Source of the DNA: Acidimicrobiia bacterium
Lineage (GTDB): Bacteria; Actinomycetota; Acidimicrobiia; Spongiisociales; UBA11373
NCBI GenBank assembly: GCA_040902765.1
Contig: JBBDWO010000007.1
Location: 20,113 to 84,112, forward strand
Direction of reading: 5' to 3'
DNA length: 64,000 bases
Shown here: positions 579-57,333 of the stretch, piece by piece
Position numbering within the stretch: the first letter of the stretch is position 1
Layout: every line of letters starts with the position of its first letter
Translations under genes and position numbers: made by a program
The notes under the pieces: generated by a model
Database searches by the model: none
The model's input: the letters and a program-made list of their open reading frames with translations, nothing else
Told to the model about the DNA's origin: nothing

Positions 579-750
579 TGGGCCTCGCGACGCGTCTGGC
601 CTCCCCCTCCGTCATCGGCCTACGGCCTCTGCCACCTCCCCCTGCGGGGGAGGAGAGTCGGGGGGTGCGGTTCGCAACTCTCTCCCCCCGTAGGGGGGGT
701 ACCGCCGAAGGCGGGGAGGGGGGAGGGCGAACACTGCGTGGGCCTCGCCG
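579..750 (+). repeat. G/C-rich multi-hairpin MITE-like element, full copy (modules U1+U2)
   Basis: CCTCGCGACGCGTCTGGCCTCCCCCTCC terminus, hairpins CCTCCCCC-TGC-GGGGGAGG, CCCCCC-GTA-GGGGGG and CCGCC-GAA-GGCGG, then GGGGAGGGGGGAGGGCG. It is bounded by the direct repeat CGTGGGCCTCGC (577-588 and 737-748). Confidence 0.8.
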
Positions 751-760
751 AGGTCTGTCC

Positions 761-788
761 AAATACCAAATACCAAGTACCAGGTACC
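761..788. repeat. heptamer array (AAATACC, 4 units)
   Basis: AAATACC AAATACC AAGTACC AGGTACC. Confidence 0.8.
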
Positions 789-820
789 GCCTCTGGCCAG
801 CCAGAGCCACAAGCTCTGCC

Positions 821-1783
821 CTACGGGCCAACCCTTGTCCCCGCGGTCCCCGCGATGGCCCGATCAATCCCCTCCACACTGGTGATCAGCGCACCACGGC
901 CGGTGGCCGACACATACGCGATACACGCTTCGATCTTGGGGCCCATCGAACCCTCCGGGAACTCGCCGGCGTCGAGGTATTGGTGCGCCTCGTCGACGGT
1001 GAGGCTGAGCAGGGGGCGTTGCTCCGCGGTCCCGAAGCCGAGATAGGCGGCATCCACCTCGGTGAGGATCACGAAACCGCGAGCGTCGATGGAGGTAGCG
1101 ATGAGGGCGCCGGTGCGGTCCTTGTCGATGACGGCCTCTACGCCGTAGGTGGTGCCGTTGGGGCCGTGTGCCACCGGGATGCCACCGCCGCCTCCGGCGA
1201 TGACGATGGCCCCGCTGCGGGCGGCATCGAGGATCGCTCCGATCCCGATGACCTCGAGCGGCGGCGGTGACGGCACGACTCGTCGGACTCCCCTGCCGGG
1301 AACCTCGACCGTCTCCCAACCACGGGCGGCGGCCAGCGTTGCGGCCTTCTCAATCGGGTAGAAGGGTCCGACCGGCTTTGTGGGTCTGGTCATCGCCGGG
1401 TTCTCCGGGTCGACCACCACCTGGGTGACGATCGGTGCGACCGCCACTTCCCTGCCCGCGCCGCGCATCGCGTCCCCGATCGAGCGGGCGAGCAGGTACC
1501 CGATGCTGCCCTGTGTCTCCGCGACCAGCACGTCGAGCGGGTCTACCGGTACCTCGTGGTGGGCTGCTTCGGCACGCAGCAGCCCGCGACCCACCTGGGG
1601 CCCGTTGCCGTGCACCAGCACCACGCCCGTGTCTTCGGGGAGGAGAACGGTGAGGGCGGCGGCGAAGGCGGCGGCGTTGCGCTCGGCCCGGCCCGGGTCA
1701 CCGGCGTCCGGGAGTAGGGCGTTGCCGCCGAACGCCACCACAAGCGGCCCGCCGTGGGACGCCCACAGACGGCGGTCAGGCAT
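821..1783 (-). CDS. arcC: carbamate kinase
   Basis: 320-aa ORF with an ATG start. It has amino-acid-kinase-fold motifs typical of carbamate kinase: VVAFGGNALL, VLVHGNGPQVG, IAGGGGGIPV, VIDKD. Confidence 0.85.
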   Translation of the reverse strand: MPDRRLWASHGGPLVVAFGGNALLPDAGDPGRAERNAAAFAAALTVLLPEDTGVVLVHGNGPQVGRGLLRAEAAHHEVPVDPLDVLVAETQGSIGYLLARSIGDAMRGAGREVAVAPIVTQVVVDPENPAMTRPTKPVGPFYPIEKAATLAAARGWETVEVPGRGVRRVVPSPPPLEVIGIGAILDAARSGAIVIAGGGGGIPVAHGPNGTTYGVEAVIDKDRTGALIATSIDARGFVILTEVDAAYLGFGTAEQRPLLSLTVDEAHQYLDAGEFPEGSMGPKIEACIAYVSATGRGALITSVEGIDRAIAGTAGTRVGP

Positions 1784-1786
1784 CGA

Positions 1787-3064
1787 TCAGCGCGACTCGT
1801 AGGCGGTGAGGGCGGCGTCGATGGCGTCGATGCCCTGGTCTAGTTCCTCACCGGTCACGCACAGCGGCGGGATGAACCGGATGACGTTGGCGTTGGGCCC
1901 GCAGTCCAGGATGAGCAGTCGGCTCTCGTCGCGGCAGTGCTGGGCGAGGAACGGGAAGGCCTTGGGGTCGGGAGTGTTGCCCTCGGTCACCAGTTCGACG
2001 CCGATCATCAGGCCGGTGCCGCGCACGTCGCCGATGGTGGGATGCTGCGACTTCAGGTCGGCGAACCGGGCGAAGGCCTGCTCGGACAACGCCCCGGTAC
2101 CCGGGATCATGGTGCCGAGCACGTCGACCGTCGCCGCCGCGGCCGCACAGGACACCGCGTTCCCGCCGAAGGTGGTGCCGTGTGAGCCGGGAGTCCAGGC
2201 GTCGAGGATCTCGGCGCTGGCACCGACCGCCGACAGGGGGAGGCCGTTGGCGATCGCCTTGCCCATGAGAAGGACATCCGGGTCGACGTCATAGTGATCC
2301 GAGGCAAACCACTTCGCGGTGCGGCCGAACCCGGTCTGGATCTCGTCGAAGATGAGCAGGATGCCGTGTTCGTCGGCGAGGTTGCGCAACCGCTGCAGGA
2401 ACCGTGCTGGGGCTGGGTAGTAACCGCCCTCGCCCTGGATCGGTTCCACCAGGAAGGCTGCTACCTCACCTGGCGTCACTTCATGGGCGAACTTCATGTC
2501 GAGTTCGCGGATGGCGTAGTCGGTGGCCTCGTCCTCGCTCATGCCCCATCCGAACGGGTGCGGGAACGGGGTGACGAACACTGACGGGAGCAGCGGGTGA
2601 TAACCCTGGCGGTACTTCGCCTTTGACGTGGTGTAGGTGACCGAGCCCATGGTGCGTCCGTGGAAGGCGCCCCGGAACACCACGACGCCCTGGCGGCCGG
2701 TGGTCTTGCGGGCCAGCTTGATCGACGCCTCCACGGCCTCGGCGCCCGAGTTCATGAAGAAGAGCTTCTCGATCGGGTCGGGTGTCACCGACACCACCTT
2801 TTCGGCGGCGGTGACCAGCGAGTCGTAGCGGAAGACTCCGCCGGCGTGCCACAGGCGGTCCAGCTGGTCGCGAGCCGCGGCGAGGATGTCGGGGTGGTTG
2901 TGTCCGGCGTTGATCACCGAGATGCCGGTGGCGAAGTCCAGGTATCGCTCGCCTTCCACATCGGTAACCCAGGATCCCTGGCCGGAGACGATCTCGAGAT
3001 CCGAATCCCAGGTGATGACCGGTGCGTAGACCTTCTCGTGGCGCTCAACGATGGAGTTGCTCAT
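1787..3064 (-). CDS. class III PLP-dependent aminotransferase (GabT/ArgD-like)
   Basis: Motifs FMNSGAEAVE and FDEIQTGFGRTAK, with a length of about 425 aa. I prefer the ATG at 3064 to the upstream TTG at 3073 used by the ORF track. Confidence 0.85.
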   Translation of the reverse strand: MSNSIVERHEKVYAPVITWDSDLEIVSGQGSWVTDVEGERYLDFATGISVINAGHNHPDILAAARDQLDRLWHAGGVFRYDSLVTAAEKVVSVTPDPIEKLFFMNSGAEAVEASIKLARKTTGRQGVVVFRGAFHGRTMGSVTYTTSKAKYRQGYHPLLPSVFVTPFPHPFGWGMSEDEATDYAIRELDMKFAHEVTPGEVAAFLVEPIQGEGGYYPAPARFLQRLRNLADEHGILLIFDEIQTGFGRTAKWFASDHYDVDPDVLLMGKAIANGLPLSAVGASAEILDAWTPGSHGTTFGGNAVSCAAAAATVDVLGTMIPGTGALSEQAFARFADLKSQHPTIGDVRGTGLMIGVELVTEGNTPDPKAFPFLAQHCRDESRLLILDCGPNANVIRFIPPLCVTGEELDQGIDAIDAALTAYESR

Positions 3065-3075
3065 GGAGCGCAAGA

Positions 3076-3111
3076 GTAACGAGTAGGAAGTAGCGAGTAG
3101 CGAGTAGCGAG
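3076..3111. repeat. heptamer array (GTAGCGA, the inverse of GCTACTC; 5 units)
   Basis: GTAACGA GTAGGAA GTAGCGA GTAGCGA GTAGCGA. Confidence 0.85.
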
Positions 3112-3120
3112 ACCGAGGTG

Positions 3121-3310
3121 AGCCTCGCGACGCGTCTGGCCTCCCCCTCCGTCAGCGACCTCCGGTCGCTGCCACCTCCCCCTGCGGGGGAGGAGACCGC
3201 GCGATCAGGTCCTTTTGCGGTTCCTCCCCCCGAAGGGGGGAGTACCTGACGGCGTAGCCGTCAGGGGAGGGGGGAGGGCGATCGCTACGCAGGCATCGCT
3301 GCGCGTCTGG
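3121..3310 (+). repeat. MITE-like element, full copy (U1+U2)
   Basis: Same architecture as 579-750. Inner hairpins here are CAGCGACC-TCC-GGTCGCTG (3153-3171) and CCTGACGGC-GTA-GCCGTCAGG (3245-3265). Confidence 0.8.
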
Positions 3311-3345
3311 CCATGAGCCATGAGCTATCAGCTATTAGCTGAGTT
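3311..3345. repeat. heptamer array (CCATGAG grading to CTATTAG, 5 units)
   Basis: CCATGAG CCATGAG CTATCAG CTATTAG CTGAGTT. It contains the TAA stop (and a following TAG) of the thioesterase-like gene. Confidence 0.8.
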
Positions 3346-7902: not shown

Positions 7903-7940
7903 AGAAAGATCGTACCGGCCGAAGGCCGGTCCGATCCGGC

Positions 7941-7970
7941 GCGATTCGCGGTTCGCGGTTCGCGATTCGC
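7941..7970. repeat. heptamer array (GCGRTTC, 4 units)
   Basis: GCGATTC GCGGTTC GCGGTTC GCGATTC GC. It is inverted relative to the 7984-8013 array. Confidence 0.85.
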
Positions 7971-7983
7971 CAGAACGCCTCTT

Positions 7984-8013
7984 GCGAATAGCGAATAGTG
8001 AATAGCGAATAGC
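7984..8013. repeat. heptamer array (GCGAATA, 4 units)
   Basis: GCGAATA GCGAATA GTGAATA GCGAATA GC. Confidence 0.85.
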
Positions 8014-8029
8014 GCCTAGGGTTTTCCCT

Positions 8030-8869
8030 GTGTCCGATCCCGGCTCCTCGTCCGCCATCCGCTCCTGTTACCGGCATCCCCACCGCGATACCCGGTTGTC
8101 GTGTTCTGAGTGCGGGCGGCCGATCTGCGTCGACTGCGCCATCGATGCCGCGGTGGGTCAGAAGTGCGCCGAGTGCTCGGCACCCGATGGTCGGCACCGG
8201 GTGATCGACCGGGCCCAAATCAAGGGCCATGTGCGCGGCGCCACGCCCTTCACCTACGCATTGATCGTGATCAACGTCGTGGTGTTTCTGGCCGGGCAGT
8301 CGAACCCCGACCTCGGGAGGCGGCTCATCCTCGACTTCGCCCACCACCCGGAGCTGGTCTCGGCGGGTGACTGGTACCGGCTGGTGACGGCGATGTTCCT
8401 CCACGGCAGCGTCATGCACCTGCTGTTCAACTCGTGGGCGCTCTGGCTGTTCGGTGCGGCGATCGAGCGGCGCTTCGGGTCGCCCTCCTTCCTGGCCCTC
8501 TACCTCGCCTCCGGGATCGCCGGGAGCACCGCGTATCAGCTGACCGGCTCGTCGTTCGCCGTGGGCGCCTCCGGCGCCATATTCGGGCTGTTTGGCGCCC
8601 TCCTCGCCGCCACCTACCGCCAGCGGCACAGCCCGGCGGGTCGTGCCGCCTTCGGCCAGTTGGCCATGCTGCTCGCCATCAACCTCGCTCTCCCGTTGCT
8701 CGTCCCGAACATCGCCTGGCAGGCCCACCTCGGGGGGCTGGTTGCCGGCATGGTCACCGCCGCCGGCTGGGACCGACTCCCTCTCACCGGCGGCGGCTCC
8801 GGCGGCAGACGCGTCGCTGTCGCCTTTGCCGTCCTGGTAGTCGCCGCCGCCATCGCCCTCCTGTTCTGA
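8030..8869 (+). CDS. rhomboid family intramembrane serine protease with an N-terminal zinc ribbon
   Basis: N-terminal CYRHP..CSECGRPICVDC, catalytic-Ser block VGASGAIFG, a His in QAHLGGL, and multiple TM helices. Confidence 0.85.
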   Translation: MSDPGSSSAIRSCYRHPHRDTRLSCSECGRPICVDCAIDAAVGQKCAECSAPDGRHRVIDRAQIKGHVRGATPFTYALIVINVVVFLAGQSNPDLGRRLILDFAHHPELVSAGDWYRLVTAMFLHGSVMHLLFNSWALWLFGAAIERRFGSPSFLALYLASGIAGSTAYQLTGSSFAVGASGAIFGLFGALLAATYRQRHSPAGRAAFGQLAMLLAINLALPLLVPNIAWQAHLGGLVAGMVTAAGWDRLPLTGGGSGGRRVAVAFAVLVVAAAIALLF

Positions 8870-8950
8870 GGGCCTCGCGACGCGTCAGCCCTCCCTCTCC
8901 GTCATCGGCCGGCGGCCGATGCCACTTCCCCCTTCAGGGGAGGGGACCGT
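8870..8950 (+). repeat. MITE-like element, U1 half copy
   Basis: GGCCTCGCGACGCGTCAGCCCTCCCTCTCC terminus, inner hairpin CATCGGCC-GGC-GGCCGATG (8903-8921), then CCACTTCCCCCTTCAGGGGAGGGG. Confidence 0.75.
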
Positions 8951-9005: not shown

Positions 9006-10220
9006 ATGGACTTCGCCTTCAGCGACGGTGCGCTCGACTGGCAGCGGCGGCTTCGTGAGTTTCTGGACGATCGGGTCTTTCCCGCCGAGGCCGAGTTCAA
9101 CCGGCAGGTCGCCGACAGCGGCACCCCCTACTTCGATCCACCGGTCCTCGACGAGCTGAAGGCCGAGGCCCGTTCCCTAGGGCTGTGGAACTTGTTCCTG
9201 CCCGACGAGGAATGGGGAGCCGGCCTGTCGGTCCTCGAGTACGCCCCGCTCGCCGAGATGACCGGCTGGCAGCCCCATTACGCCCCTGAGGCCATCAACT
9301 GCTCGGCACCCGACACCGGGAACATGGAGATCCTGGCCATGTTCGGCACGCAGGAGCAGCAGGAGCGGTGGTTGGTGCCGCTGCTCGAAGCCGAGATCCG
9401 TTCGTGTTTCGCCATGACCGAACCGGCGGTGGCGTCGTCCGATGCCACCAACATCGCCTGCCGAATCGACGACGATGGCGACGACTTCGTGATCACCGGC
9501 ACCAAGTGGTGGTCCAGCGGAGCCATGTCGCCACGCTGCAAGATCGCCATCGTCATGGGGGTCACCGACCCCGACGCCGACGTGTACCACCGGCAGAGCA
9601 TGGTGCTGGTGCCGATGGAGGCTCCGGGAGTCCAGGTGGTCCGCGACCTCACCGTGTTCGGCTACCACGAGCGCGGGGGTCACGCCGAGATCCGCTTCGA
9701 CGGGGTTCGGGTCCCCAAGAGCAACCTGCTGGGCGAGCGAGGCGGCGGCTTTGCCATCGCCCAGGCGCGCCTCGGTCCCGGCCGCATCCACCACTGCATG
9801 CGGCTCATCGGGATGGCCGAGCGGGCCTTCGACGTCATGTGCCGGCGCGCTCTGGAGCGCACCGCCTTCGGCAAGTCGATCGCCGAGCAGGGGGTGGTGC
9901 AGGACTGGATCGCCGAAGCGCGCATCCGCATCGAACAAGCCCGGCTCATGGTGCTCAAGGCGGCGTGGCTCATCGATACCGTTGGGGTCAAGGGGGCGCG
10001 TATCGAGGTGTCGGCGATCAAGGTGGCGGTGCCCGAGATGGCCACCTGGGTGATCGACCGTGGGATCCAGGTGCTCGGCGGCGCCGGGGTGAGCGATGAC
10101 TTCCCGCTCGCCTCCCTCTACGCCCACGCCCGGACCCTGCGCATCGCCGATGGGCCCGACGAGGTGCACAAGCGCTCGGTGGCGCGGCGCGAGCTGCGGC
10201 GGGTGCGGGACGAGTCGTGA
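9006..10220 (+). CDS. acyl-CoA dehydrogenase
   Basis: 404 aa with an ATG start. ACAD blocks CFAMTEP, TGTKWWSSGA and a C-terminal IADGPDEVH. Confidence 0.9.
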   Translation: MDFAFSDGALDWQRRLREFLDDRVFPAEAEFNRQVADSGTPYFDPPVLDELKAEARSLGLWNLFLPDEEWGAGLSVLEYAPLAEMTGWQPHYAPEAINCSAPDTGNMEILAMFGTQEQQERWLVPLLEAEIRSCFAMTEPAVASSDATNIACRIDDDGDDFVITGTKWWSSGAMSPRCKIAIVMGVTDPDADVYHRQSMVLVPMEAPGVQVVRDLTVFGYHERGGHAEIRFDGVRVPKSNLLGERGGGFAIAQARLGPGRIHHCMRLIGMAERAFDVMCRRALERTAFGKSIAEQGVVQDWIAEARIRIEQARLMVLKAAWLIDTVGVKGARIEVSAIKVAVPEMATWVIDRGIQVLGGAGVSDDFPLASLYAHARTLRIADGPDEVHKRSVARRELRRVRDES

Positions 10221-11005
10221 CCGGGGCGGTGTTCGAGCCGGTCGGGGATGCCTTTCAGCCGCAGCCGGTGTCGCGGTCCGGGTGGGGCGAGGAGGTGCTG
10301 CACGGCGGGCCGGTGGCGGCGCTGTTCGTTCACCAGATGGAGCGGGTGCCGGCCCCGGTGCCGATGCAGGTCGCACGGCTCACCGTCGACATGTTCCGTC
10401 CAGTGCCCACCAGCCCGCTGACCGTCACCACGCAGGTGAGCAGGGAGGGCCGCCGGATCCAGACGCTCGAGGCGTCCATGACCTCAGACGGGGTCGAGGT
10501 GGCAAGGGCCACGATGCTGCGGATCAGGTCCGACGATCTGGCGGTACCCGACCACCCGACCCGTGAACCACTTCCGGACCCCGACGGGCTTCCGGTCCAT
10601 CGGATGGTCCATCCGATGCCGGAGCACGATGAGGACGATTGGTTCCACACCCGTGGCGTCGAGATGCGCCTCGTGTCGGGAGACATCGTCGAGCCAGGAC
10701 CGGCCACGGTGTGGATGCGTCTCACCGTTCCCATCGTTTCCGGCGAGGAGCCATCACCGACCCAGCGTGCAGTCGCCGTCGCCGACTTCCCCAACGGCAT
10801 CAGCCGGGTGCTGCCACCGGGATGGCTGTACATCAACCCCGACCTCACCGTGCATTTCGCTCGACCACCCGACGGCGAGTGGATCGCCCTGGGCGCCCGC
10901 ACCGACATCACCGGCGGTGTCGGCCTGGCCCAGGCCGACCTCTTCGACACCGCGGGCGCGTTCGGGCACTGCCTGCAGTCGCTGTTGGTGGCGCAGGGGT
11001 ACTGA
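10217..11005 (+). CDS. thioesterase-like superfamily protein (double hotdog, TesB-like)
   Basis: 262 aa with a GTG start that overlaps the ACAD stop (GTGA). The HGGPVAALF-type motif is typical of acyl-CoA thioesterase-like proteins. Confidence 0.6.
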   Translation: MTGAVFEPVGDAFQPQPVSRSGWGEEVLHGGPVAALFVHQMERVPAPVPMQVARLTVDMFRPVPTSPLTVTTQVSREGRRIQTLEASMTSDGVEVARATMLRIRSDDLAVPDHPTREPLPDPDGLPVHRMVHPMPEHDEDDWFHTRGVEMRLVSGDIVEPGPATVWMRLTVPIVSGEEPSPTQRAVAVADFPNGISRVLPPGWLYINPDLTVHFARPPDGEWIALGARTDITGGVGLAQADLFDTAGAFGHCLQSLLVAQGY

Positions 11006-11100
11006 TTCCCCTCTCTCCCCCCGTAGGGGGGAGTACCCGACGGCGGAGCCGTCAGGGGAGGGGGGAGGGCGAACGCTACGCAGCCCCCGCGACGCGGCCG
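11006..11100 (+). repeat. MITE-like element, U2 half copy
   Basis: CTCTCCCCCC-GTA-GGGGGGAG hairpin, CCCGACGGC-GGA-GCCGTCAGG hairpin, GGGGAGGGGGGAGGGCG, and a CGCGACGCG end. Confidence 0.75.
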
Positions 11101-11128
11101 CTCTTGGTTCTTGGCTCTTGGTTCTCCG
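11101..11128. repeat. heptamer array (YTCTTGG, 4 units)
   Basis: CTCTTGG TTCTTGG CTCTTGG TTCTCCG. Confidence 0.75.
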
Positions 11129-14630: not shown

Positions 14631-14650
14631 TTCGTTATTCGTTATTCGCT
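14627..14650. repeat. heptamer array (GTTATTC, 3 units)
   Basis: GTTATTC x3 followed by GCT. It is inverted relative to the 14705-14734 array. Confidence 0.8.
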
Positions 14651-31769: not shown

Positions 31770-31797
31770 GGCTACCTGCTGCCGGCTACCGGCTACC
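31770..31797. repeat. heptamer array (GGCTACC, 4 units)
   Basis: GGCTACC TGCTGCC GGCTACC GGCTACC. Confidence 0.75.
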
Positions 31798-31837
31798 GCC
31801 GAAGGCGGGGAGGGGGGAGGGCTTACGCGTCGCGAGC
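31795..31837 (+). repeat. MITE-like element, 3'-terminal fragment of U2
   Basis: ACCGCCGAAGGCGGGGAGGGGGGAGGGCTTACGCGTCGCGAGC, which is identical in its core to 701-727. Confidence 0.7.
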
Positions 31838-35000: not shown

Positions 35001-35091
35001 GGGAAGGGGCGAGGGCCAGGAGGAACGATGGGCGAGGGACGAGGGGCCAGGGGCGAGGGGCCAGGATGGCGATGAGCGAGAACGAAGGCAG
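35001..35091. repeat. heptamer array (GGGGCGA/GGGGCCA-type, about 13 partly decayed units)
   Basis: GGGAAGG GGCGAGG GCCAGGA GGAACGA TGGGCGA GGGACGA GGGGCCA GGGGCGA GGGGCCA GGATGGC GATGAGC GAGAACG AAGGCAG. Confidence 0.7.
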
Positions 35092-35299
35092 GGCCTCGCG
35101 ATGGGTCAACCCTCCCCCTCCGTCTCGGCCCTTCGGGCCGATCCACCTCCCCCTTCGGGGGAGGGAACCGCGTTGGGAGGTCCCGCTTTGCGGTTCCTCG
35201 CCCTGAAGGGGTTGGGAGGTCCCGCTTTGCGGTTCCTCCCCCTGAAGGGGGGAGTACCGCCGAAGGCGGGGAGGGGGGAGGGCTGGCGCGTCGCGAGCG
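35091..35299 (+). repeat. MITE-like element, full copy with an internal 39-nt tandem duplication
   Basis: The termini GGGCCTCGCGATGGGTCAACCCTCCCCCTCC and GGGGAGGGGGGAGGGCTGGCGCGTCGCGAGC are mutually inverted. The inner hairpin is TCGGCCC-TTC-GGGCCGA (35125-35141). The duplicated unit GTTGGGAGGTCCCGCTTTGCGGTTCCTC.CCCTGAAGGG occurs at 35172-35210 and at 35211-35250. Confidence 0.8.
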
Positions 35300-38007: not shown

Positions 38008-38059
38008 TTAGCCCTCCTCCGTCCGAACCCTTCGGGCCGATCCCCCCTCTTCGGGAGTC
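38008..38059 (+). repeat. MITE-like element, decayed U1 copy
   Basis: TTAGCCCTCCTCCGTCCGAACCCTTCGGGCCGATCCCCCCTCTTCGGGAG resembles 35107-35165 with several changes. It lies just downstream of the clpB stop. Confidence 0.5.
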
Positions 38060-41096: not shown

Positions 41097-41333
41097 ATGT
41101 CGAGTTCGAGAACTAACCGGCCGACCTCACGACGCGACCGTCCCCCTCCGTTCTTGGTGGAAAACGACCAGCACAGTGTGTGTCCCTGGAAGGGCACGGC
41201 CGCGTACTTCGACATAGTGGTCGACGGCCAGACCAACCGTGGGGCTGCCTGGTACTACGCCGATCCCAAGCCAGCCGCCGAGGAGATCCGAGATCGGGTC
41301 GCCTTCTGGAAGGGCGTGGCAGTCGAAGCCTGA
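41097..41333 (+). CDS. truncated DUF427 paralog (C-terminal half only; possible pseudogene)
   Basis: 78-aa ORF. Residues from FLVENDQHSVCPWKGTAAYFD onward align to the neighbouring DUF427. The N-terminal beta strands are missing, and the 5' part is replaced by a sequence resembling the repeat-element terminus. Confidence 0.5.
   Translation: MSSSRTNRPTSRRDRPPPFLVENDQHSVCPWKGTAAYFDIVVDGQTNRGAAWYYADPKPAAEEIRDRVAFWKGVAVEA
41125..41151 (+). repeat. terminus-like fragment of the MITE-like element at the 5' end of the truncated DUF427 copy
   Basis: CCTCACGACGCGACCGTCCCCCTCCGT compared with the element terminus CCTCGCGACGCGTCTGGCCTCCCCCTCCGT. Confidence 0.45.
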
Positions 41334-43668: not shown

Positions 43669-44865
43669 ATGTCAGCACGCCCATCCCCACTGCTCGGTCT
43701 CGCCGCGTTGGTATCGCTCGTCGGTACGGCTTGCACCACGAGCGAGACACAGCCTTCGGCACCCAACGGCACGACGGTCGAGGAGATTGCCAGCCCGGTC
43801 GGCACGCTTCCCGATGGCCCGTCGGCTCTCCAGAACATGTTCGACCCGGAGTTCCCCGAGCCCCTCGTCGACCCCGAGCAGATCATCTCGGGAGGTCCTC
43901 CCCCTGACGGGATCCCCCCGATCGATGATCCCCACTTCGTACCGGTCGCCGACGTCGACTGGCTTCGGGATCAGGAGGGTGTGATTGCCGTGGAGATCGA
44001 TGGCGACGCTCGCGCTTACCCGGCGCAAATCCTCATCTGGCACGAGATCGTGAACGACACCGTCGGGGGTGTCCCGGTCTCGGTGACCTACTGCCCCCTG
44101 TGCAACAGCGCGGTGACGTTCGTCCGATCGGTAGAGGGCGTCGAGACGACCTTCGGCACATCGGGTCGGCTGTTCGCCTCCGCGCTGGTGATGTACGACC
44201 GCGCCACCGAGTCTCTGTGGACCCACTTCGACGGGCGTGCGGTGGTCGGCGTACTCGCCGGACAGCGTTTGCAGCCCATTCCATCGCCGTTGCTCTCGTG
44301 GGGCGAGTTCCGCGCTGCCTACCCGGATGGGTTGGTCCTCAACAAGTTCCGAACGGGACACTCCCGCCAGTACGGGTCCAACCCTTACGTGGGATATGAC
44401 GATCCGGACGGCCATCCCTTCTTGTTCAACGGGATCGTCGACGATCGCGCCCGCGCCATGCAGCGAGTCGTCGGGATCGAGCTCGATGGGACGGCGCGAG
44501 CGTGGTCCCTCGACGCGATCTCTGATGGTGAGGCGTCAGTGACGCACGACCAGATCGCAGGCCGCTCGTTGGTCATCTTCTGGCGCGACGGGCAGGCCAG
44601 CGCACTCCACCAGTTCCTGACCGACATCGGGCGAGTGGTGGGCACGGTGGGTGTCTTTTCCCCGCTACTCGAAGGCCAGGAGCTCACCTTTCAGGCGCGA
44701 GAGGACGAGTTTGTCGACGACCAGACCGGTTCTACCTGGGACATCACCGGACGAGCCGTTGCAGGTCCCCTGACCGGAGCGACCCTCGAGCGCCTCCACC
44801 ACCTTGACACGTTCTGGTTCGCCTGGTCGACCTACCAGCCCGATACGTCGCTAATCGAGCCGTGA
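43669..44865 (+). CDS. DUF3179 domain lipoprotein
   Basis: The ATG at 43669 gives a lipobox signal (LAALVSLVGTAC). The DUF3179 core is PPPDGIPPIDDP, WHEIVND and VTYCPLCNS (a CxxC motif). Confidence 0.8.
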   Translation: MSARPSPLLGLAALVSLVGTACTTSETQPSAPNGTTVEEIASPVGTLPDGPSALQNMFDPEFPEPLVDPEQIISGGPPPDGIPPIDDPHFVPVADVDWLRDQEGVIAVEIDGDARAYPAQILIWHEIVNDTVGGVPVSVTYCPLCNSAVTFVRSVEGVETTFGTSGRLFASALVMYDRATESLWTHFDGRAVVGVLAGQRLQPIPSPLLSWGEFRAAYPDGLVLNKFRTGHSRQYGSNPYVGYDDPDGHPFLFNGIVDDRARAMQRVVGIELDGTARAWSLDAISDGEASVTHDQIAGRSLVIFWRDGQASALHQFLTDIGRVVGTVGVFSPLLEGQELTFQAREDEFVDDQTGSTWDITGRAVAGPLTGATLERLHHLDTFWFAWSTYQPDTSLIEP

Positions 44866-44903
44866 CCGCTGCCAGTAGCCCTCGACAAGGAGATTTAGCG
44901 CCC

Positions 44904-46325: not shown

Positions 46326-46452
46326 CGCTGATGCACCCCGCTGAGGTTGCACTGGCGCGCTAGGTGCGGTCGGCGCTCATGCGGCACGTGCTTCCCTACG
46401 ACATGGCTGCCGCGGCGGTAGCGCTGGCGTTCCTCTTTGCCGGCGCGCGTCG

Positions 46453-47244
46453 TCAAGCCACCGTACAGCCGAGCGCCCAGTCGTAGGGAAGGAACTCGAC
46501 GCGGGGACGCGTAGCGACGACCCAGGCGGCAACCTCGGCTTCCAGCCATGGGATCAGGGCCAGGGCCACCGCCCTGGGGCGGGCGGGAAGCATCGTGGGC
46601 ATCTTCGACGGTCGTGTGAAGTCGCCACCGAACCAACGGAAGATGCGTGACAGGCGGAGCACACCGGAATCGGGATCGGCGCTGGCGCCGCCCTCACGGA
46701 GAAAGCGCTGCATCTGGTCGTCGAGTTGATGGTTGAGTGCTGGCCCCGCATAGGGTTCGGAGCGCAGCGTCGGACATGACACCGCGCCGCACATGAGCGC
46801 AGCATGGACGCGGGGGTCACTGAATCGACGAATCTTGGCGTGCTCGATCGCGTCGAGGGACAGCGTCTCGTCGGAGATGGTGAGGACGGGGCGCTGAAAC
46901 CCACCGGGGACCCGTAACACCGAGGTCGTATCGCTTCGACCCGCTTCGACCGCAAGACCGATGGCGGCCGCGTTGTAGAGGTTGATCCAAAAGGCGAGGG
47001 CGCCGTCTTTGCCGAGTCGGTCTGGCTCGACCTCGGTGGCGTGCTGAATGAAGGCGGCGACGGACCCTGGATCCACGGCCCGGATCCCGCGTTCGGCGAT
47101 CGTGGCGAGGATCGGTCCTAGCGCTGCTTGATCGACGTGCCCTGACCCGGAAGGTCGGGGAGCACGGACGCTGCGAAGTGACTGGCCGATCGACCAGAGG
47201 ACCGCGAGGGGGTTGGGCGATGGCGATTGGGTCACCCCATGCAC
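46453..47244 (-). CDS. DUF547 domain protein
   Basis: 263 aa. DUF547 hallmark AFWINLYNAA, then HAALMCGAVSCP. Confidence 0.75.
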   Translation of the reverse strand: MHGVTQSPSPNPLAVLWSIGQSLRSVRAPRPSGSGHVDQAALGPILATIAERGIRAVDPGSVAAFIQHATEVEPDRLGKDGALAFWINLYNAAAIGLAVEAGRSDTTSVLRVPGGFQRPVLTISDETLSLDAIEHAKIRRFSDPRVHAALMCGAVSCPTLRSEPYAGPALNHQLDDQMQRFLREGGASADPDSGVLRLSRIFRWFGGDFTRPSKMPTMLPARPRAVALALIPWLEAEVAAWVVATRPRVEFLPYDWALGCTVA

Positions 47245-47284
47245 AACCGCCGGGCGGTGTCGGCTGTTCCCGTTGTGTGAACCG

Positions 47285-48042
47285 TCAGGCTGGAGCGGGC
47301 CGGATACGCACGGACACGATCGGGCCCGGACCGAATGGATCGGATACCTCTAGGCCCACGGATCGGTAGGCCGAAGCTGGCACCGAGATGTCGGCCAAGT
47401 AGATGTCCCCGGTAATGGCCGCTGGCGCAGCCATCAGCCCGGTCTTCGGGAGTCCAAGCGTCACCGTCACCTCGGCGTGGATGCACGGACTCCTTGCTTC
47501 GCCGGTCGTAGCGTCAGGCCGCTGGGGATGTCGACCGAGATGATCGGACTGGCGGCGCTGTTGGCCCACTCGATGAGATCGGCTGCTCGTTGGCGGGGGT
47601 CGCCCGATAGGGAGTATCCGATGATCCCATCGATGATCACGTCGCCCGGTGTCGGTGCGTCCTCAATGGGTATGCCGAGCCGGTTTGCGATCGTCAACTG
47701 CAAGGTGGGGACGGGTCCCATTCGATCTGCGGAGGTTGCCGTCACGGCAACGCCAACTCCCCTGTTGACCAGGTGTCGCGCCGCCACCAGTGCGCCACCG
47801 CCGTTGCCCCCGGTTCCCGCCAGGACGGTGACTCGTTGGGGGTTCCACAGCGTCATGGCGAGGCGTGCGACGGCAGCACCGGCATGCTCCATCATCATCG
47901 GCAACGCGACGCCGAGGTCCTCGATCATCCGCCGGTCGATGTCGGCCATCTGGGCAGCGGTCACCGCGGGGAGGCCGGCCGAGGCGGGTGGAGGCAGCAT
48001 CGACATCGTCCGTAAGTGTCGCATGGATGGGACGACCCTCAT
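47285..48042 (-). pseudogene. nnrE: NAD(P)H-hydrate epimerase (YjeF N-terminal domain), interrupted by a -1 frameshift
   Basis: ORF 47467..48387 carries LAGTGGNGGGALVAARHL and VDIPSGL and then stops. The expected continuation, DATTGE...VTVTLGLPKTGL, is in ORF 47285..47569. One G appears to be missing in GGCCTG(G)ACGCT near 47514-47518. Confidence 0.65.
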
Positions 48043-48044
48043 GC

Positions 48045-48075
48045 TTGACCTTCGAGTGACTCGAAGGTGTACGGT
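48045..48075 (+). promoter_or_regulatory. MerR-type promoter/operator with a 19-bp spacer
   Basis: TTGACC (48045-48050), a 19-nt spacer, then TACGGT (48070-48075). The spacer holds the perfect inverted repeat ACCTTCGAG-TGA-CTCGAAGGT (48048-48068). The merR-like ATG lies 7 nt downstream of the -10, so the transcript would be leaderless or nearly so. Confidence 0.65.
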
Positions 48076-48081
48076 CCGCTG

Positions 48082-48477
48082 ATGCGGATAGGAGCGTTGG
48101 CCCGCGTTACCGGTCTCGATCGGTCGACGATGAGGTTCTATGAGCAAGTCGGTGTATTCCCGTCGCCGCCGCGTCTCGACAACGGCTATCGCGACTATGA
48201 CGAGCGCCTGGTGGAACTCGGACGATTCGTACGGGCGGCCCGCTCGCTGGGATTCACGCTCCACGACATCCGGGAAGTCGTACGGCTGCGGGAGTCGGGT
48301 ACCGCGCCGTGCGCGCAAGTGCGCCGGGTCATCGACGCCCGCATCGCCGGTGTCGGGCAGCAGATCGCGGACCTGCTGCGAGCCCATGAGGAGCTCATAG
48401 CGCTACGCGACGAAGCGGCGTCGTTGGACGATCGGTGGGAGGAGGCATCGTGCGTTTGCCATCTGGTGACCGGGTGA
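48082..48477 (+). CDS. MerR family metal-responsive transcriptional regulator
   Basis: 131 aa from the ATG at 48082. N-terminal HTH (MRIGALARVTGLDRSTMRFYEQ). Cys77 plus a C-terminal CVC (Cys124/126) give the three-Cys pattern of heavy-metal MerR/ZntR/CadR-type sensors. Confidence 0.8.
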   Translation: MRIGALARVTGLDRSTMRFYEQVGVFPSPPRLDNGYRDYDERLVELGRFVRAARSLGFTLHDIREVVRLRESGTAPCAQVRRVIDARIAGVGQQIADLLRAHEELIALRDEAASLDDRWEEASCVCHLVTG

Positions 48478-48767
48478 CCATTGAGGTCCGGTACTTCGAT
48501 TCGTGCCCCAACTGGAAGCGGACGCGCCGCCTGATCGAGGGGATCACTGGTGAAGCACCTCGGCTGCTTCTGGTGGAGACACTCCAGCAAGCCGAGGAGC
48601 TCGACTTTGCCGGATCCCCGACCGTGTTGGTCAACGGGGTCGATCCGTGGTCGGACCAAGCGGCTGCTGCTTCGATGTCGTGTCGCATCTATCGAACGCC
48701 TGACGGTTCGCTCGTCGGCGGACCCACCGAGGCGATGCTCCGCGATGCCCTGAAACCCGACGCCTGA
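48435..48767 (+). CDS. small thioredoxin-fold protein (single-Cys SCPNW motif)
   Basis: 110-aa ORF overlapping the merR-like 3' end. YFDSCPNW and GSPTVLVNG resemble glutaredoxin/thioredoxin-like proteins found in actinobacterial metal-resistance loci. The start is uncertain (48435 or GTG 48450). Confidence 0.5.
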   Translation: MGGGIVRLPSGDRVTIEVRYFDSCPNWKRTRRLIEGITGEAPRLLLVETLQQAEELDFAGSPTVLVNGVDPWSDQAAAASMSCRIYRTPDGSLVGGPTEAMLRDALKPDA

Positions 48768-48788
48768 CGGTCGCGTATCCTCGGACCC

Positions 48789-49469
48789 GTGATCGAGCCG
48801 CAGTTCATTCCGTACCGCCCGACGCGGCCGCCGATCGAGGAGGTTGCGGCTCGAGCGCACGACCTGTACCAGGCTCTAGATACGCGCCGCAGCGTTCGCA
48901 TGTTCTCCCCGGACCCGGTGCCGCGGGCGATCATCGAAGATGTCGTTCGCGCCGCGTCCACGGCTCCGTCGGGGGCACATCGCCAGCCATGGCGGTTCGT
49001 GATCGTCGGTGATCCTGGTACCAAGCGTAAGATCCGCGCCGCCGCTGAGGCCGAGGAGGCCGAGAACTATGGCGGAAGGCTGCCCGAGGATTGGCTGGAG
49101 GCGCTGGCCCCACTCGGTACCGACGAACACAAGCCGTATCTGGAGATCGCACCGTGGATCGTCGTTCTGTTCGAGGAGCGCTACGGCATCAACCCTGATG
49201 GCTCTCACCGAAAGAACTTCTACGTGAAGGAGAGCGTTGGGATCGCCGCCGGGATGTTCGTGGCAGCCGTTCACCTGTCGGGCCTGGCGACCCTACCTCA
49301 CACCCCGAGTCCGATGGCGTTCCTGTCGAAGACGCTGGAGCGGCCCGAGAACGAGCGACCATTTGCGCTCTTTCCCGTCGGGTATCCGGCCGACGATTGT
49401 GTGGTACCCGACCTCGTTCGTAAACCTCTCGCAGAGGTGGCGGTCGAGTTCCCGCCTCCTGTGGGGTAG
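48789..49469 (+). CDS. nitroreductase family protein (iodotyrosine deiodinase/BluB-like subgroup)
   Basis: 226 aa with a GTG start. RRSVRMF, APSGAHRQPWRF and the C-terminal LPHTPSP block. Confidence 0.85.
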   Translation: MIEPQFIPYRPTRPPIEEVAARAHDLYQALDTRRSVRMFSPDPVPRAIIEDVVRAASTAPSGAHRQPWRFVIVGDPGTKRKIRAAAEAEEAENYGGRLPEDWLEALAPLGTDEHKPYLEIAPWIVVLFEERYGINPDGSHRKNFYVKESVGIAAGMFVAAVHLSGLATLPHTPSPMAFLSKTLERPENERPFALFPVGYPADDCVVPDLVRKPLAEVAVEFPPPVG

Positions 49470-49571
49470 GGCGTCACCGCGCGAGAGAGTGTCGGCCGCA
49501 CGACATTGCGTCGCCCGCCGATGGGTCCAGGGCGTTGAGATGGGTATGACTACACCAGCGAGGAGAAACCG

Positions 49572-49988
49572 ATGTCGTACCTGATACCGATCAGCGAACA
49601 GCCCGGCTCTGTCGACGCCATGTCGCATGCCCGGCGCTTCGATAGGCTGTTTAGGGTGGCCGCGGTCGCCAACGCCATGCTCGAGGAGGTGCGCGACGCC
49701 CCGTGTGACCCACCGGGCTGCGGGCGCCTGCGCGACTCCTATCTGCGCACCGTGGACGAACTGCGCGATGTGCTCGGCGGAGACCTCAGGGATGAGCTGG
49801 GCCGCCGGGTTGTCGCATTCGGACGAGGGGCCCCCACCCCCTCTGAGCTGCGAGTAGCGCACGCCGAGCTTGTGGGGTGGCTGGACGGCCTCCTCGGGGG
49901 TCTTGCCGCCGCTGTCGACACCATTGAGGCACCGTCGGTGCGGGACGAAGAGGACCGCGCCGACATCATGCCAGGGCAATACCTGTGA
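49572..49988 (+). CDS. bpa: bacterial proteasome activator Bpa/PafE
   Basis: 138 aa. It aligns by eye to M. tuberculosis Rv3780 (LEEVR.AP.D, RLRD, ELR.A.A.LVGWL.GL) and ends with the proteasome-docking GQYL motif. Confidence 0.85.
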   Translation: MSYLIPISEQPGSVDAMSHARRFDRLFRVAAVANAMLEEVRDAPCDPPGCGRLRDSYLRTVDELRDVLGGDLRDELGRRVVAFGRGAPTPSELRVAHAELVGWLDGLLGGLAAAVDTIEAPSVRDEEDRADIMPGQYL

Positions 49989-50051
49989 ACACCATCGAAT
50001 ACCGGGTCGGCCCGTCGAGACCGACCGGCCAGTCCTGGGCCGAGGACTGAC

Positions 50052-50672
50052 ATGGACATAGCCGTGAACCTCGTGGAGTCCTATCTCCGGCTCAATGGCT
50101 ATCTGACGCTGACCGAGGTCGAGGTTCAGCATCCTGGAGCGAGCGGCCTTTACGAGTCGATCACCGACATCGACGTGGTGGCAATCAGGTTCCCCGGGGA
50201 CATGTTCGCTGCCGACCTGCATGGTGAGGCGGACAGTCGGATGCTTCTCATCGAGGACGATGGACTGTATCTCGGACCAGAGATGGTCGACGTGATCATC
50301 GGCGAGGTCAAGGAGGGACCCGCTCGGCTCAACGCTGCGGTTCGGCGGCACGAGGTTCTTCATATGGTTCTTCGCCGCTTGGATTGGATCTACGAGTCGG
50401 GGGTTGATCCAGTCCTCGCCGATCTCCAGCGCCGCGGGTTGTCCGAGGCTATGGGGAGGTCGGGAGCGGTCATCCGTACCCGACTGGTTGCCTTCGGTGC
50501 CGACCCCGGCGAACCCACGCTCCATCTGGTGCCGCTGTCACATGTCTTGGAGCGAATGGTCGAATTCATGGAACGTTTCGACGACGTACTGCGTCCCACC
50601 CAGTTCAAAGAGCCCGCCCCCGCACTACTGCGGCTCCTCGTGAAATGCGGTTTTCGTCTCACGAATCGATAG
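50052..50672 (+). CDS. hypothetical protein with a PD-(D/E)XK nuclease-like motif
   Basis: 206 aa with an ATG start. VESYLRLNGY, then D-I-D-VVAI, then VIIGEVKEG. This is a D...ExK arrangement typical of restriction-endonuclease-fold proteins. Confidence 0.55.
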   Translation: MDIAVNLVESYLRLNGYLTLTEVEVQHPGASGLYESITDIDVVAIRFPGDMFAADLHGEADSRMLLIEDDGLYLGPEMVDVIIGEVKEGPARLNAAVRRHEVLHMVLRRLDWIYESGVDPVLADLQRRGLSEAMGRSGAVIRTRLVAFGADPGEPTLHLVPLSHVLERMVEFMERFDDVLRPTQFKEPAPALLRLLVKCGFRLTNR

Positions 50673-54783: not shown

Positions 54784-54793
54784 TCCCAAGAGT

Positions 54794-56312: not shown

Positions 56313-56313
56313 C

Positions 56314-56341
56314 AGCCAGTGGCGAGGGGCGAGTGGCCAGG
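56314..56341. repeat. heptamer array (GGCGAGK, about 4 units)
   Basis: AGCCAGT GGCGAGG GGCGAGT GGCCAGG, directly after the ligC TAG stop. Confidence 0.7.
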
Positions 56342-56342
56342 G

Positions 56343-56550
56343 TCGCGTCATGGGGTCCACGTAGGGTTTGCCCTCCCCCCTCCCCGCCGCTCGCTTCGCT
56401 CCCGGCGGTACTCCCCCCTTCGGGGGGAGGGACCGCAAGAGAGAGGTGATGACCGGGAGTGCCGCCTCTGTTTGCGGTCCCCTCCCCTGAAGGGGGAGGT
56501 GGCAGCGGCCTCTGGCCGCTGACGGAGGGGGAGGGCTGACGCGTCGCGGG
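56343..56550 (-). repeat. MITE-like element, full copy in inverted orientation (left of DUF559)
   Basis: The reverse complement of the U2+U1 architecture. GCCCTCCCCCCTCCCC, CTCCCCCC-TTC-GGGGGGAG, linking stem GGGACCGCA...TGCGGTCCC, CCTCCCC-TGAA-GGGGGAGG, CAGCGGCC-TCT-GGCCGCTG (56503-56521), and a GGAGGGGGAGGGCTGACGCGTCGCG end. Confidence 0.8.
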
Positions 56551-56589
56551 GGGCTGGCAACTCGTTGTCAGACGAGACATTCTCTACGG

Positions 56590-56958
56590 ATGGCAAGGCC
56601 CCCTCGTGATCCGCTCGCCGCTGAGCGTGCCCGAACACTGCGGCGTAGGCAGACCAATGTCGAGGCTCGTCTCTGGGTCCGTCTTAGGGGCGGTCAGTTG
56701 GGCGTCCGATTCCGACGGCAGGTGCCGATGGGTCAGTGGATCGTTGACTTCGCCTGTTTCGCCCCCAAGCTCGTCATCGAAGTGGACGACGGGTCTCACG
56801 ATGGCCGGGACGAGTCGGAACGCACTCGGTACCTGGAGTCCTTGGGTTTTGCAGTGGCTCGTTTCGACAACAGGGACATCTTCGAGATCGACGTGGCGGT
56901 CCACGCCCTCGAAGTGGCGATAGCGGCACTGCGGAAGGGTGAACCGCTCCCTTGGTGA
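56590..56958 (+). CDS. DUF559 endonuclease domain protein (Vsr-like PD-(D/E)XK)
   Basis: 122 aa. LRRRQT..E..LW..LR, FRRQ..., YIVDF-like WIVDFAC, LVIEVDG-like LVIEVDDGSH, and G..V.RF.N. Confidence 0.85.
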   Translation: MARPPRDPLAAERARTLRRRQTNVEARLWVRLRGGQLGVRFRRQVPMGQWIVDFACFAPKLVIEVDDGSHDGRDESERTRYLESLGFAVARFDNRDIFEIDVAVHALEVAIAALRKGEPLPW

Positions 56959-56965
56959 TCGGTCC

Positions 56966-57333
56966 CTCTCGCGGGCCGACGCGTCGCGGGGTCTCCGTAG
57001 TGTTTGCCCTCCCCCCTCCCCGCCGCTCGCTTCGCTCGCGGCGGTACTCCCCCCTTCGGGGGGAGGGACCGCAGGAGAGAGGTGATGACCGGAAGTCCTG
57101 CCTCTGTTTGCGGTCCCCTCCCCTGAAGGGGGAGGTGGCAGCGGCCTCTGGCCGCTGACGGAGGGGGAGGGCTTCCTGCGGTCCCCTCCCCTGAAGGGGG
57201 AGGTGGCAGCGGCCTTGCCGCTGACGGAGGGGGAGGGCTTCCTGCAGTCCTTTCTGCGGTTCCCTCCCCTGAAGGGGGAGGTGGCAGCGGCCTCTGGCCG
57301 CTGACGGAGGGGGAGGGCTGACGCGTCGCGAGG
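56966..57333 (-). repeat. MITE-like element, inverted orientation, with the U1 module triplicated (right of DUF559)
   Basis: 56998-57172 is a near-direct repeat of 56361-56535. The U1 module recurs at 57111-57172, 57179-57238 and 57257-57318, separated by 6 nt and 18 nt. Confidence 0.8.

Follow-up and report, generated by a model that had tools for sequence, protein, structure and literature searches.

A 64,000-nucleotide stretch from an Acidimicrobiia bacterium (contig JBBDWO010000007.1; the window, in what follows) carries a family of G/C-rich, multi-hairpin repeats and, between two of them, a gene for a DUF559 protein. The repeats are probably selfish, non-coding, non-autonomous mosaic DNA elements of the BoxC/PIT (potential intrastrand triplex) type that are partnered with DUF559, in analogy to REP (repetitive extragenic palindromic) sequences and their RAYTs (REP-associated tyrosine transposases). 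A wider proposal is put forward only tentatively, namely that DUF559 nucleases could be the functional cognate partners of BoxC/PIT/triplex-motif repeats throughout bacteria, recognising a folded hairpin-plus-mirror-strand on single-stranded DNA and driving the spread or reshuffling of the repeats. The observations behind these readings are the anatomy of the units, a mirror rule that relates their segments, covariation in the second loop, a cross-phylum association with DUF559 genes, and the insertion, expansion and deletion of copies. To our knowledge, BoxC/PIT/triplex-motif repeats have been known since the 1990s from thousands of occurrences, with no known function or cognate enzyme. Earlier work on them is reportedly that of Bachellier et al. 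and of Hoyne and Maher (2000/2002), and successive readings of BoxC-type repeats have taken them for palindromes, triplexes, quadruplex switches and terminators.

Anatomy of the repeats

Five full and five partial copies had been listed by a sequence-only reading of this DNA. All ten places bear the element, as five composite copies and five partial ones (Table 1), and the motif scan matches only there. The G-box GGAGGGGGGAGGGC has seven exact occurrences where 0.17 are expected from dinucleotide shuffles of the window (0 of 100 shuffles reach seven), and the core of the A module, CTCGCGACGCGTC, is found eight times with at most one mismatch against 1.1 expected. A composite consists of two units of ~50 nt, an a-type and a b-type, which are inverted (head to head) about a central hairpin; each unit combines two hairpins, a fixed one made of a C-arm and a G-arm and a variable one (U1 or U2), with a G-box. 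With the G-box placed 3', the composite reads A module GATCGCTACGTGGGCCTCGCGACGCGTCTGG, C-box CCTCCCCCTCC, U1, CCA, CCTCCCCC-nnn-GGGGGAGG, the central hairpin (GACCGC...GCGGTC), CTCCCCCC-nnn-GGGGGGAG, TA, U2, GGAGGGGGGAGGGC and a second A module. The a-type unit is CCTCCCCC-GNA-GGGGGAGG, TGG, the U1 hairpin, AC and GGAGGGGG, and the b-type unit is CTCCCCCC-GNA-GGGGGGAG (the hairpin HP3), TA, the U2 hairpin and G-GAGGGGGG; both fixed hairpins lie where the sequence-only reading had located them. Of the a-type units in the window, seven are intact and two decayed; of the b-type units, five are intact, one is damaged and one truncated. The A module is 25–31 nt long, consists of GATCGCTACGTGGGCCTCGCGACGCGTCTGG and variants, and contains the palindrome core CGCGACGCGTCGCG. 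The loops of the units are mostly C-GNA-G on the unit forward strand (HP3 83 of 133 and U2 47 of 67, among the matches listed in the genome scan described below), and C-GNA-G is a very stable DNA mini-hairpin loop.

Some details of the earlier description needed revision. Copy 1 starts at 569 and ends at 753 instead of running from 579 to 750, two pairs of its U1 stem are mismatched, and the A is missing from the purine arm of its HP3. The termini had been described as inverted relative to each other; this was found, in the short form, in copy 3 and in the b-type remnant, whereas four of the five full copies carry direct A modules, and the ends look inverted because the core CGCGACGCGTCGCG is itself a palindrome. 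Copy 3 has a 39-nt internal duplication, and copy 5 contains three tandem units with a 68-nt period. The placement of the copies after stop codons and in both orientations was borne out: in a gene call of the window based on third-position G+C (GC3), every copy is intergenic and lies 1–71 nt from a stop codon, in either orientation relative to the upstream gene. The description as a dispersed, non-coding repeat family resembling REPs or miniature inverted-repeat transposable elements (MITEs) likewise holds.

Mirror rule and triplex layout

BoxC, PIT and TM_ECO are names for the same elements, found in E. coli and other Proteobacteria (PMC4666352). Each unit of the window is predicted, from its letters, to have the layout of their kind, a class II purine-motif intrastrand triplex. 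A pyrimidine arm is followed by its perfect purine complement (8-nt arms, 3-nt loops and 0–1 mismatch in the 12 window units), and the G-box mirrors the purine arm of the fixed hairpin instead of complementing it, so that GGGGGGAG is followed by GAGGGGGG and GGGGGAGG by GGAGGGGG. Twelve window units have 8 of 8 possible mirror triads, with a second loop (loop 2) of 16–28 nt. The rule is obeyed by at least 12 arm types in units at DUF559 flanks and in other genomes, and no arm type seen beside DUF559 genes breaks it. In short form, G5AG2 is found with G2AG5, G5AG3 with G3[AT]G5 and G3AG5 with G5[AT]G3; further pairs are GGGGGAAGG with GGAAGGGGG, GGGGGAGA with AGAGGGGG, GGGAAAGG with GGATAGGG and GGGAGGGGG with GGGGGAGGG, and a T often stands opposite A in the mirror box. 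The mirror rule gives covariation evidence for a triplex geometry across these arm types.

In such a fold the mirror purine box would fold back antiparallel on the purine arm to form G·G-C, A·A-T and T·A-T triads, and the triplex or hairpin fold presumably forms in vivo. Conservation of the G-box is seen outside the window as well. A one-genome-per-species scan with CTCCCCCCNNNGGGGGGAGTACC, a pattern without the G-box, returned at least 120 stretches, and the matches nearly always run on beyond the pattern as CC–variable hairpin–GG and then GGAGGGGGG, the G-box being present in 113 of 118 among the matches listed. It is also kept in 20 of the 20 units, among the matches listed, that have no C-box within 200 nt, and long-range Watson-Crick pairing with the C-box therefore does not explain it.

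The second loop sets the window units apart from the published form. The TM_ECO consensus is CCCTCNCCC N3-6 GGGNGAGGG N3 GGGNGAGGG (Holder et al. 2015, PMC4666352), whereas the window arms are CTCCCCCC and CCTCCCCC; loops of 1–6 nt in ITxF and of N3 in TM_ECO are likewise exceeded by the hairpin-bearing 16–28 nt of the window, which consist of a 2–3 nt linker and the U1 or U2 hairpin. Across the DUF559 flanks the length of loop 2 is bimodal, with either 2–4 nt or 12–29 nt. The U1 or U2 hairpin would replace the 3-nt second loop, where only compactness would be needed and the sequence could drift by compensatory change; U1 and U2 would be free in sequence yet constrained in pairing because a hairpin in the loop only has to stay closed.

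The DUF559 gene and its association with the units

The DUF559 gene, absent from the sequence-only reading, lies between composites 4 and 5. Its product matches PF04480 with an E value of 8.5e-29 and 100.1 bits against a cut-off of 20.6, over model positions 4–99 of 109. The nearest solved structure is PDB 3HRL, an endonuclease-like protein from Neisseria gonorrhoeae (E 1.5e-20), and with the YcjD equivalog model the protein scores 66, below the cut-off of 218. The gene is bracketed by repeat sequence, with a G-box 53 nt upstream of the ATG, a C-box 47 nt past the stop codon and GACGCGTCGCGGGG directly repeated on both sides. An Acidobacteriota gene in a metagenome-assembled genome (MAG), 57% identical to that of the window, is bracketed likewise.

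The association extends to many bacterial phyla. Eighty DUF559 loci were fetched by protein patterns alone, with a query alignment that included two proteins from unit-bearing loci, and a class II unit lies within ~250 nt in 68 of the 80, against a background of 6 units in the 157 kb of flanking DNA that lies beyond 400 nt from DUF559. A forward unit stands upstream in 52 loci and a reverse unit downstream in 31, and the DUF559 open reading frame (ORF) commonly extends with its 3' end into the reverse unit. Homologues closest to the window protein (49–63% identity) come from Acidobacteriota, Acidimicrobiia and Gammaproteobacteria MAGs with the same a-/b-type arms, and these MAGs also surfaced in the DNA-pattern scan, among the matches listed. 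The link between DUF559 and the units is strongly supported as an association, and it places a specific candidate enzyme (DUF559; ycjD in E. coli) beside the repeats. The literature searched held no link between DUF559 or ycjD and BoxC or triplex repeats, and DUF559 is not among the defence components listed by PADLOC.

In E. coli the DUF559 gene ycjD ends inside a reverse BoxC and more copies precede fabI (L202, E. coli 042, gene order sapF-ycjD-fabI). The gene is single-copy in 3378 of 5426 complete E. coli genomes. In a spread sample of E. coli, BoxC-like places number a median of 19 in genomes with the ycjD-fabI BoxC locus and 10.5 in those without it, a comparison that is confounded by phylogeny and suggestive only. 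The avian pathogenic strain APEC O2-211 (L283) has an efflux gene cluster after sapF in place of ycjD.

In several Acidobacteriota MAGs and one bin labelled Actinomycetota (L125, L127 = L039, L128, L134; L124) a unit–DUF559–unit cassette occupies the same place, directly after a gene whose product ends in ...RFNV and ahead of non-coding sequence (…GGAGAGCCCC…CGCCGAAGGGGCAAC…) that is conserved and resembles a riboswitch leader. The cassette appears to be vertically inherited in those MAGs, because the same conserved locus is found in several of them, and it resembles the vertical, single-copy habit typical of RAYT genes.

The sequence-only reading had suggested a search for a cognate transposase of the RAYT/IS200-like or another kind. 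No transposase or RAYT (Y1_Tnp, HUH) is present among the 61 ORFs scanned against Pfam in these 64 kb of the genome, and the gene bracketed by the repeats is DUF559. The repeats could still be ordinary MITEs or REPs that are moved by an enzyme encoded elsewhere, such as a RAYT or a DDE transposase, with DUF559 a homing-type or hitch-hiking gene that splits the G-box/C-box junction and has no part in the spread. The gene sits exactly between G-box and C-box, as would a homing gene inside its own target, direct repeats of composite sequence flank it in the window and in L122, and published classifications group the DUF559 fold with Vsr and a group I intron homing endonuclease. This account is nevertheless considered unlikely. 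A transposase or RAYT is missing from the window and none has been reported near TM_ECO sites, where Holder et al. (2015), the most thorough study of these repeats, state that no mobility genes were ever found (PMC4666352). Active homing would be expected to fill many of the dozens of unit junctions, whereas ycjD is a single copy at a fixed, conserved E. coli locus and the Acidobacteriota cassette has one conserved locus, although one of these MAGs has a second DUF559 locus (L129). Additionally, DUF559 clades and unit arm types travel together across phyla.

Covariation of the inner hairpins and the folded strand

The sequence-only reading held that the inner hairpins vary in sequence yet stay self-complementary, and named a larger alignment as the place where the case for structural selection could fail. 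In that alignment the changes in the U2 stem are compensatory beyond chance. Among the matches listed there are 67 distinct U2 sequences, and a test that pairs U2 from the outside inwards gives a Watson-Crick fraction of 0.78 against 0.69 in the null. Because indels blur this test, a fixed-length class of 43-nt units was used for the formal count. In 49 distinct units of this class, from many genomes and among the matches listed, three of the five U2 pairs have changed in both partners (21 cells), the observed covariation score is attained in 0 of 500 shuffles, and slid controls collapse. Compensatory change keeps the inner hairpins, for which a DNA cruciform or an RNA had been proposed; the layout is the more specific one of a triplex motif, and single-stranded DNA is favoured over RNA.

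Folded single-stranded DNA is a better candidate than RNA in view of the triplex geometry, the C-GNA-G loops, and several results that bear directly on a role in transcripts. An RNA-level element, in which compensatory changes keep the hairpins of intrinsic-type terminators or 3'-end stabilisers, would fit the position of all copies shortly after stop codons. It would also fit the very stable RNA fold predicted for copy 2 (3121–3310; -119.3 kcal/mol, z -5.2 against shuffles), for which the predicted DNA folds are -67.3 (z -6.5) on the + strand and -63.6 (z -5.9) on the - strand. Similar repeats in Enterobacter are presumed terminators in the literature. However, no T/U run of the kind found in intrinsic terminators follows the hairpins at any of the ten copies, and copies are found both along and against the direction of the upstream gene. 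An RNA hairpin leaves the conserved mirror G-box without a role, and RNA reportedly does not form purine-motif triplexes (PMC4666352). The hairpin mismatches carry no wobble signature of a transcribed strand, with 15 G:T and 16 A:C among the matches listed. PIT elements have no terminator or promoter activity in the work cited in PMC4666352, as far as that citation goes. In Brevundimonas/Caulobacteraceae the unit is tolerated in frame inside the glyS and E2 genes, where a terminator would do harm. Rfam yields 0 matches in the window at gathering thresholds and, for one copy at E values up to 10, sub-threshold chance matches only (microRNA precursors, CRISPR-DR58 and whalefall-1); the best score on the element alone is 23.7 bits against a threshold of 62. 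An RNA-level role is accordingly judged improbable. The fold would be expected on transiently single-stranded DNA, not on RNA.

Proposed role of DUF559

DUF559 would recognise and nick the folded unit on single-stranded DNA, and repair or copying after the nick would then spread or reshuffle the units. Mobilisation, homing into the units and repair are all possible forms of DUF559 action. If true, the partnership would give DUF559 a role, and a non-B DNA fold would, as is rarely seen, serve for recognition. The partnership would also be a second, mechanistically different counterpart of REP-RAYT, with the elements of the window as its Acidimicrobiia hairpin-in-loop variant.

There are several points that weigh against this proposal. 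Many of the 68 unit-bearing loci are not independent events, because the cassette sits at one conserved locus in several Acidobacteriota MAGs. E. coli genomes without ycjD still bear BoxC-like copies, as the hitch-hiking account would have it, and a homing-type or hitch-hiking gene that targets pre-existing repeats could yield the association. A RAYT or other transposase may be encoded in the source genome outside the 64 kb. The triplex of the window units is a predicted layout, and that of TM_ECO is known from isolated single strands: it forms on the isolated strand in vitro, as seen by circular dichroism (CD) and nuclear magnetic resonance, and was found neither in duplex DNA nor by in vivo dimethyl sulfate footprinting (PMC4666352). 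The Caulobacter DUF559 protein, the sole one with published functional data found, is read as a T:G mismatch repair nuclease; binding or cutting of units by DUF559 is what we infer.

The Caulobacter result and the Vsr-like repair nuclease fold would suit a host guardian that processes replication-blocking triplexes or hairpins and is kept near the units by selection without spreading them; TM_ECO loci are also unusually unstable (PMC4666352). A repair enzyme that works in trans, however, has no need of substrates on either side of its gene in a fixed orientation, or of a gene 3' end that overlaps a unit, and E. coli genomes with the ycjD locus have more BoxC-like places, not fewer, subject to the phylogenetic confounding noted above. 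A guardian role of this kind is highly improbable. A regulatory switch between G-quadruplex, i-motif and hairpin, as Kaplan et al. (2016) read the E. coli copies, is scarcely credible for these units: each has at least four G tracts (G6, G2-4 in the U2 stem, G4 and G6), and E. coli relatives gave G-quadruplex and hairpin CD signals, so far as that account reports them, but a quadruplex predicts neither the interrupting A (or T) at the mirror position in at least 12 arm types nor the perfectly complementary pyrimidine arm, and does not explain the link to DUF559.

Relationship to known repeat systems

The elements of the window are a hairpin-in-loop mosaic variant of the BoxC/PIT kind in a phylum without an earlier description, which extends the class to Actinomycetota. 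They share with BoxC/PIT/TM_ECO the order of pyrimidine arm, loop, purine complement, loop and mirror purine (or T) box. Both are G/C-rich, present in many copies, intergenic, often at gene 3' ends and often in inverted pairs, and both are locally unstable, with partial deletions that keep a hairpin. The window units differ from BoxC in their arms (CTCCCCCC and CCTCCCCC, not CCCTCNCCC), in a second loop of linker plus hairpin instead of N3, in being embedded in a ~190-nt mosaic with an A module and a central hairpin, in their Acidimicrobiia-type actinobacterial host, and in the link to DUF559/ycjD, which is unreported for BoxC. The second loop can thus be a free-sequence hairpin, a form invisible to the published search; the ITxF search of Holder et al. 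would have missed this variant because only 1–6 nt loops were allowed (PMC4666352).

REP sequences, bacterial interspersed mosaic elements (BIMEs) and REPINs resemble the repeats in their short palindromic units, which occur singly or as inverted doublets and clusters between genes, after stop codons. REP-RAYT systems additionally share the combination of many copies with one vertically inherited, unit-flanked nuclease gene per genome, and a unit type that goes with an enzyme clade. The differences are that the bracketed gene encodes a PD-(D/E)XK Vsr-like DUF559 protein and not an HUH tyrosine transposase, that the units begin with tTT-CTCCCCCC and lack a GTAG head, that they have a third (mirror) segment, and that DUF559 is a candidate for moving them. 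Like MITEs, the repeats are small (170–370 bp) and structured, encode no protein, lie dispersed and greatly outnumber any coding partner. Unlike MITEs, they show no target-site duplication at the flanks of the full copies, most of their ends are direct copies of a module with a palindrome in it, no parent insertion sequence (IS) with matching ends was found in the window, and their sub-units occur alone and in arrays. Rickettsia palindromic elements are, like the b-type unit of Brevundimonas/Caulobacteraceae, found in frame inside protein-coding genes, but they have no sequence relation to it and all copies in the window are intergenic. The DUF559 protein shares its fold with Vsr, the Vsr-like homing group and PDB 3HRL, a group that includes a mismatch-nicking enzyme and a homing endonuclease; unlike Vsr, it has no methyltransferase partner nearby and repeats lie on both sides of its gene. 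Candidates that were dropped, having no defining feature in common with the elements beyond hairpins, are CRISPR, integron attC sites, group II intron targets and IS200/IS605 ends.

Spread in other genomes and turnover of copies

The sequence-only reading had proposed a scan of related genomes, and units were found in many genomes of several phyla. Among the matches listed, the hosts are Acidimicrobiia, Acidobacteriota, a Gammaproteobacteria MAG, Kiloniellales, Fimbriimonadaceae and Brevundimonas/Caulobacteraceae, and the units occur singly, as inverted pairs in either order, or in arrays. A stricter pattern, the G-box followed by NNN and CGCGTCGCG, gave two matches in one MAG, and a literature search with the raw sequence GGGGGGAGTACC returned an unrelated primer only. 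Contigs of short-read MAGs often end inside elements, as is expected of high-copy repeats.

Two comparisons reveal how copies change. A 3.6-kb stretch of the window is 87% identical to an Acidimicrobiia MAG contig (L004), and composite copy 2 is present at the orthologous site minus 38 nt, which correspond to the U1 3' arm and the CCTCCCCC/GGGGGAGG hairpin. The convergent genes for the ligD ligase and a primase-polymerase are 25–144 nt apart in relatives and 1065 nt apart in the window, where two composites and the DUF559 gene take up the space between them. This comparison yields spacer lengths and no clean empty site, because the closest relative (by the LigD primase-polymerase protein) has 59% identity.

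In Brevundimonas/Caulobacteraceae a 45-nt b-type unit lies in frame in coding regions, twice in the linker of the 2-oxoacid dehydrogenase E2 component (an acyltransferase) and once in the beta subunit of glycyl-tRNA synthetase (glyS). The three translated copies read S-P-P-x-G-G-S-T-R-E-A-G-E-G-G. Nothing relevant on in-frame palindromic elements in Brevundimonas was present in the literature searched.

Other features of the window

Table 1. Repeat copies, the DUF559 gene and heptamer arrays of the window, with in-frame units of other genomes in the last two rows
Feature	Coordinates	Strand	Parts and position
Composite copy 1	569..753	+	A module 569-599; C-box 600-610; U1 611-634, stem decayed; a-type unit 603-653 (- strand); centre 654-681; b-type unit 682-728, purine arm minus its A; decayed direct A module 729-753 at right end
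Composite copy 2	3120..3310	+	A module 3120-3139; a-type unit 3143-3193 (- strand, 8/8 triads); centre hairpin 3194-3223; b-type unit 3224-3279 (+ strand, 8/8 triads) with U2 hairpin CCTGACGGC GTA GCCGTCAGG; direct A module 3280-3310
Half copy	8870..8950	+	A-module core and decayed a-type unit, fixed hairpin mismatched; C-box GCCCTCCCTCTCC; U1 CATCGGCC GGC GGCCGATG; adjoins stop codon of rhomboid gene 8030-8869
Half copy	11006..11100	+	b-type unit 11015-11070 (8/8 triads), one C:A mismatch in U2 stem; direct A module; begins 1 nt past stop codon of gene 10217-11005
b-type remnant	31795..31837	+	U2 (CCGCC GAA GGCGG); G-box; short inverted A core
Composite copy 3	35091..35299	+	a-type unit 35114-35164 (- strand, 8/8); 39-nt tandem duplication in centre, 35172-35250; b-type unit 35236-35283 (8/8); short inverted A core 35284-35298
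Decayed a-type unit	38008..38059	+	C-box GCCCTCCTCC; U1 still paired; fixed hairpin eroded; 15 nt from stop codon of clpB (38074-40641)
Small remnant	41125..41151	+	A core CCTCACGACGCGAC; C-box CCCCCTCC; between two tandem DUF427 genes
Composite copy 4	56343..56551	-	b-type unit 56375-56429 (- strand, 8/8) with long U2 CCGCCGGGAGCGAAGCGAGCGGCGG; centre hairpin; a-type unit 56481-56531 (+ strand, 8/8); G-box and TGACGCGTCGCGGGG point at start of DUF559 gene
DUF559 gene	56590-56958	+	122 aa, full length, PF04480, Vsr-like PD-(D/E)XK nuclease fold
Composite copy 5	56966..57333	-	A module; b-type unit 57011-57065 (- strand, 8/8); centre; three a-type units in tandem, 57117-57167, 57185-57233 and 57263-57313 (+ strand, all 8/8), 68-nt period; inverted A core 57320-57333
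Heptamer arrays	555-570, 759-788, 3074-3111, 3310-3325, 7940-8014, 11102-11125, 14626-14731, 16618-16640
Heptamer arrays, further	31770-31798, 31849-31893, 33084-33110, 33511-33556, 35005-35065, 56321-56342, 57352-57381, 58372-58417
In-frame b-type units, Brevundimonas/Caulobacteraceae loci	L048 2664-2706 and 3078-3120; L078 5238-5280
Further such loci	L007, L016, L037, L044, L053, L071, L073, L074, L090, L101

The window has a G+C content of 65–72% and carries housekeeping genes (a haem biosynthesis operon, purA/purB, dnaK-grpE-dnaJ-hspR, clpB and ligD); no IS elements were found in it. Its intergenic regions are filled by tandem arrays of 2–8 heptamers, many of which flank elements while several stand alone, and whose unit sequences vary (GAGGGGC, CCAAATA, GAGTAGC, GCGAATA, TCTTGGT, GCTGGTA and others). 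Such arrays occur likewise at other Acidimicrobiia MAG loci and recall the heptameric STRR (short tandemly repeated repetitive) sequences of cyanobacteria. The arrays that flank the copy in L004 differ from those of the window, and they turn over fast, since the unit sequences differ at this orthologous site.

Two tandem DUF427 (PF04248) frames lie at 40788-41072 and 41097-41333; the second is truncated and has ~73% DNA identity to the first, and the small element remnant lies at their junction. The gene at 33103-33465 (- strand) encodes a 120-aa four-helix-bundle protein of the 23S rRNA intervening-sequence protein family (PF05635/TIGR02436) that is distantly Avd-like. Its GC3 of 0.72 is below that of its neighbours and heptamer arrays lie to either side (33084-33110 and 33511-33556); it has the look of a small gene that was inserted. 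Lastly, a block at ~41384-50525 of about nine genes has a third-position G+C of 0.72–0.79, compared to 0.81–0.92 in the rest of the window, and bears no element copies. It includes genes for a Crp-type regulator, a DsbD-like protein, a redoxin, DUF3179, a pyridine-nucleotide disulphide oxidoreductase, DUF547 and a YjeF_N protein, and may have been horizontally acquired.

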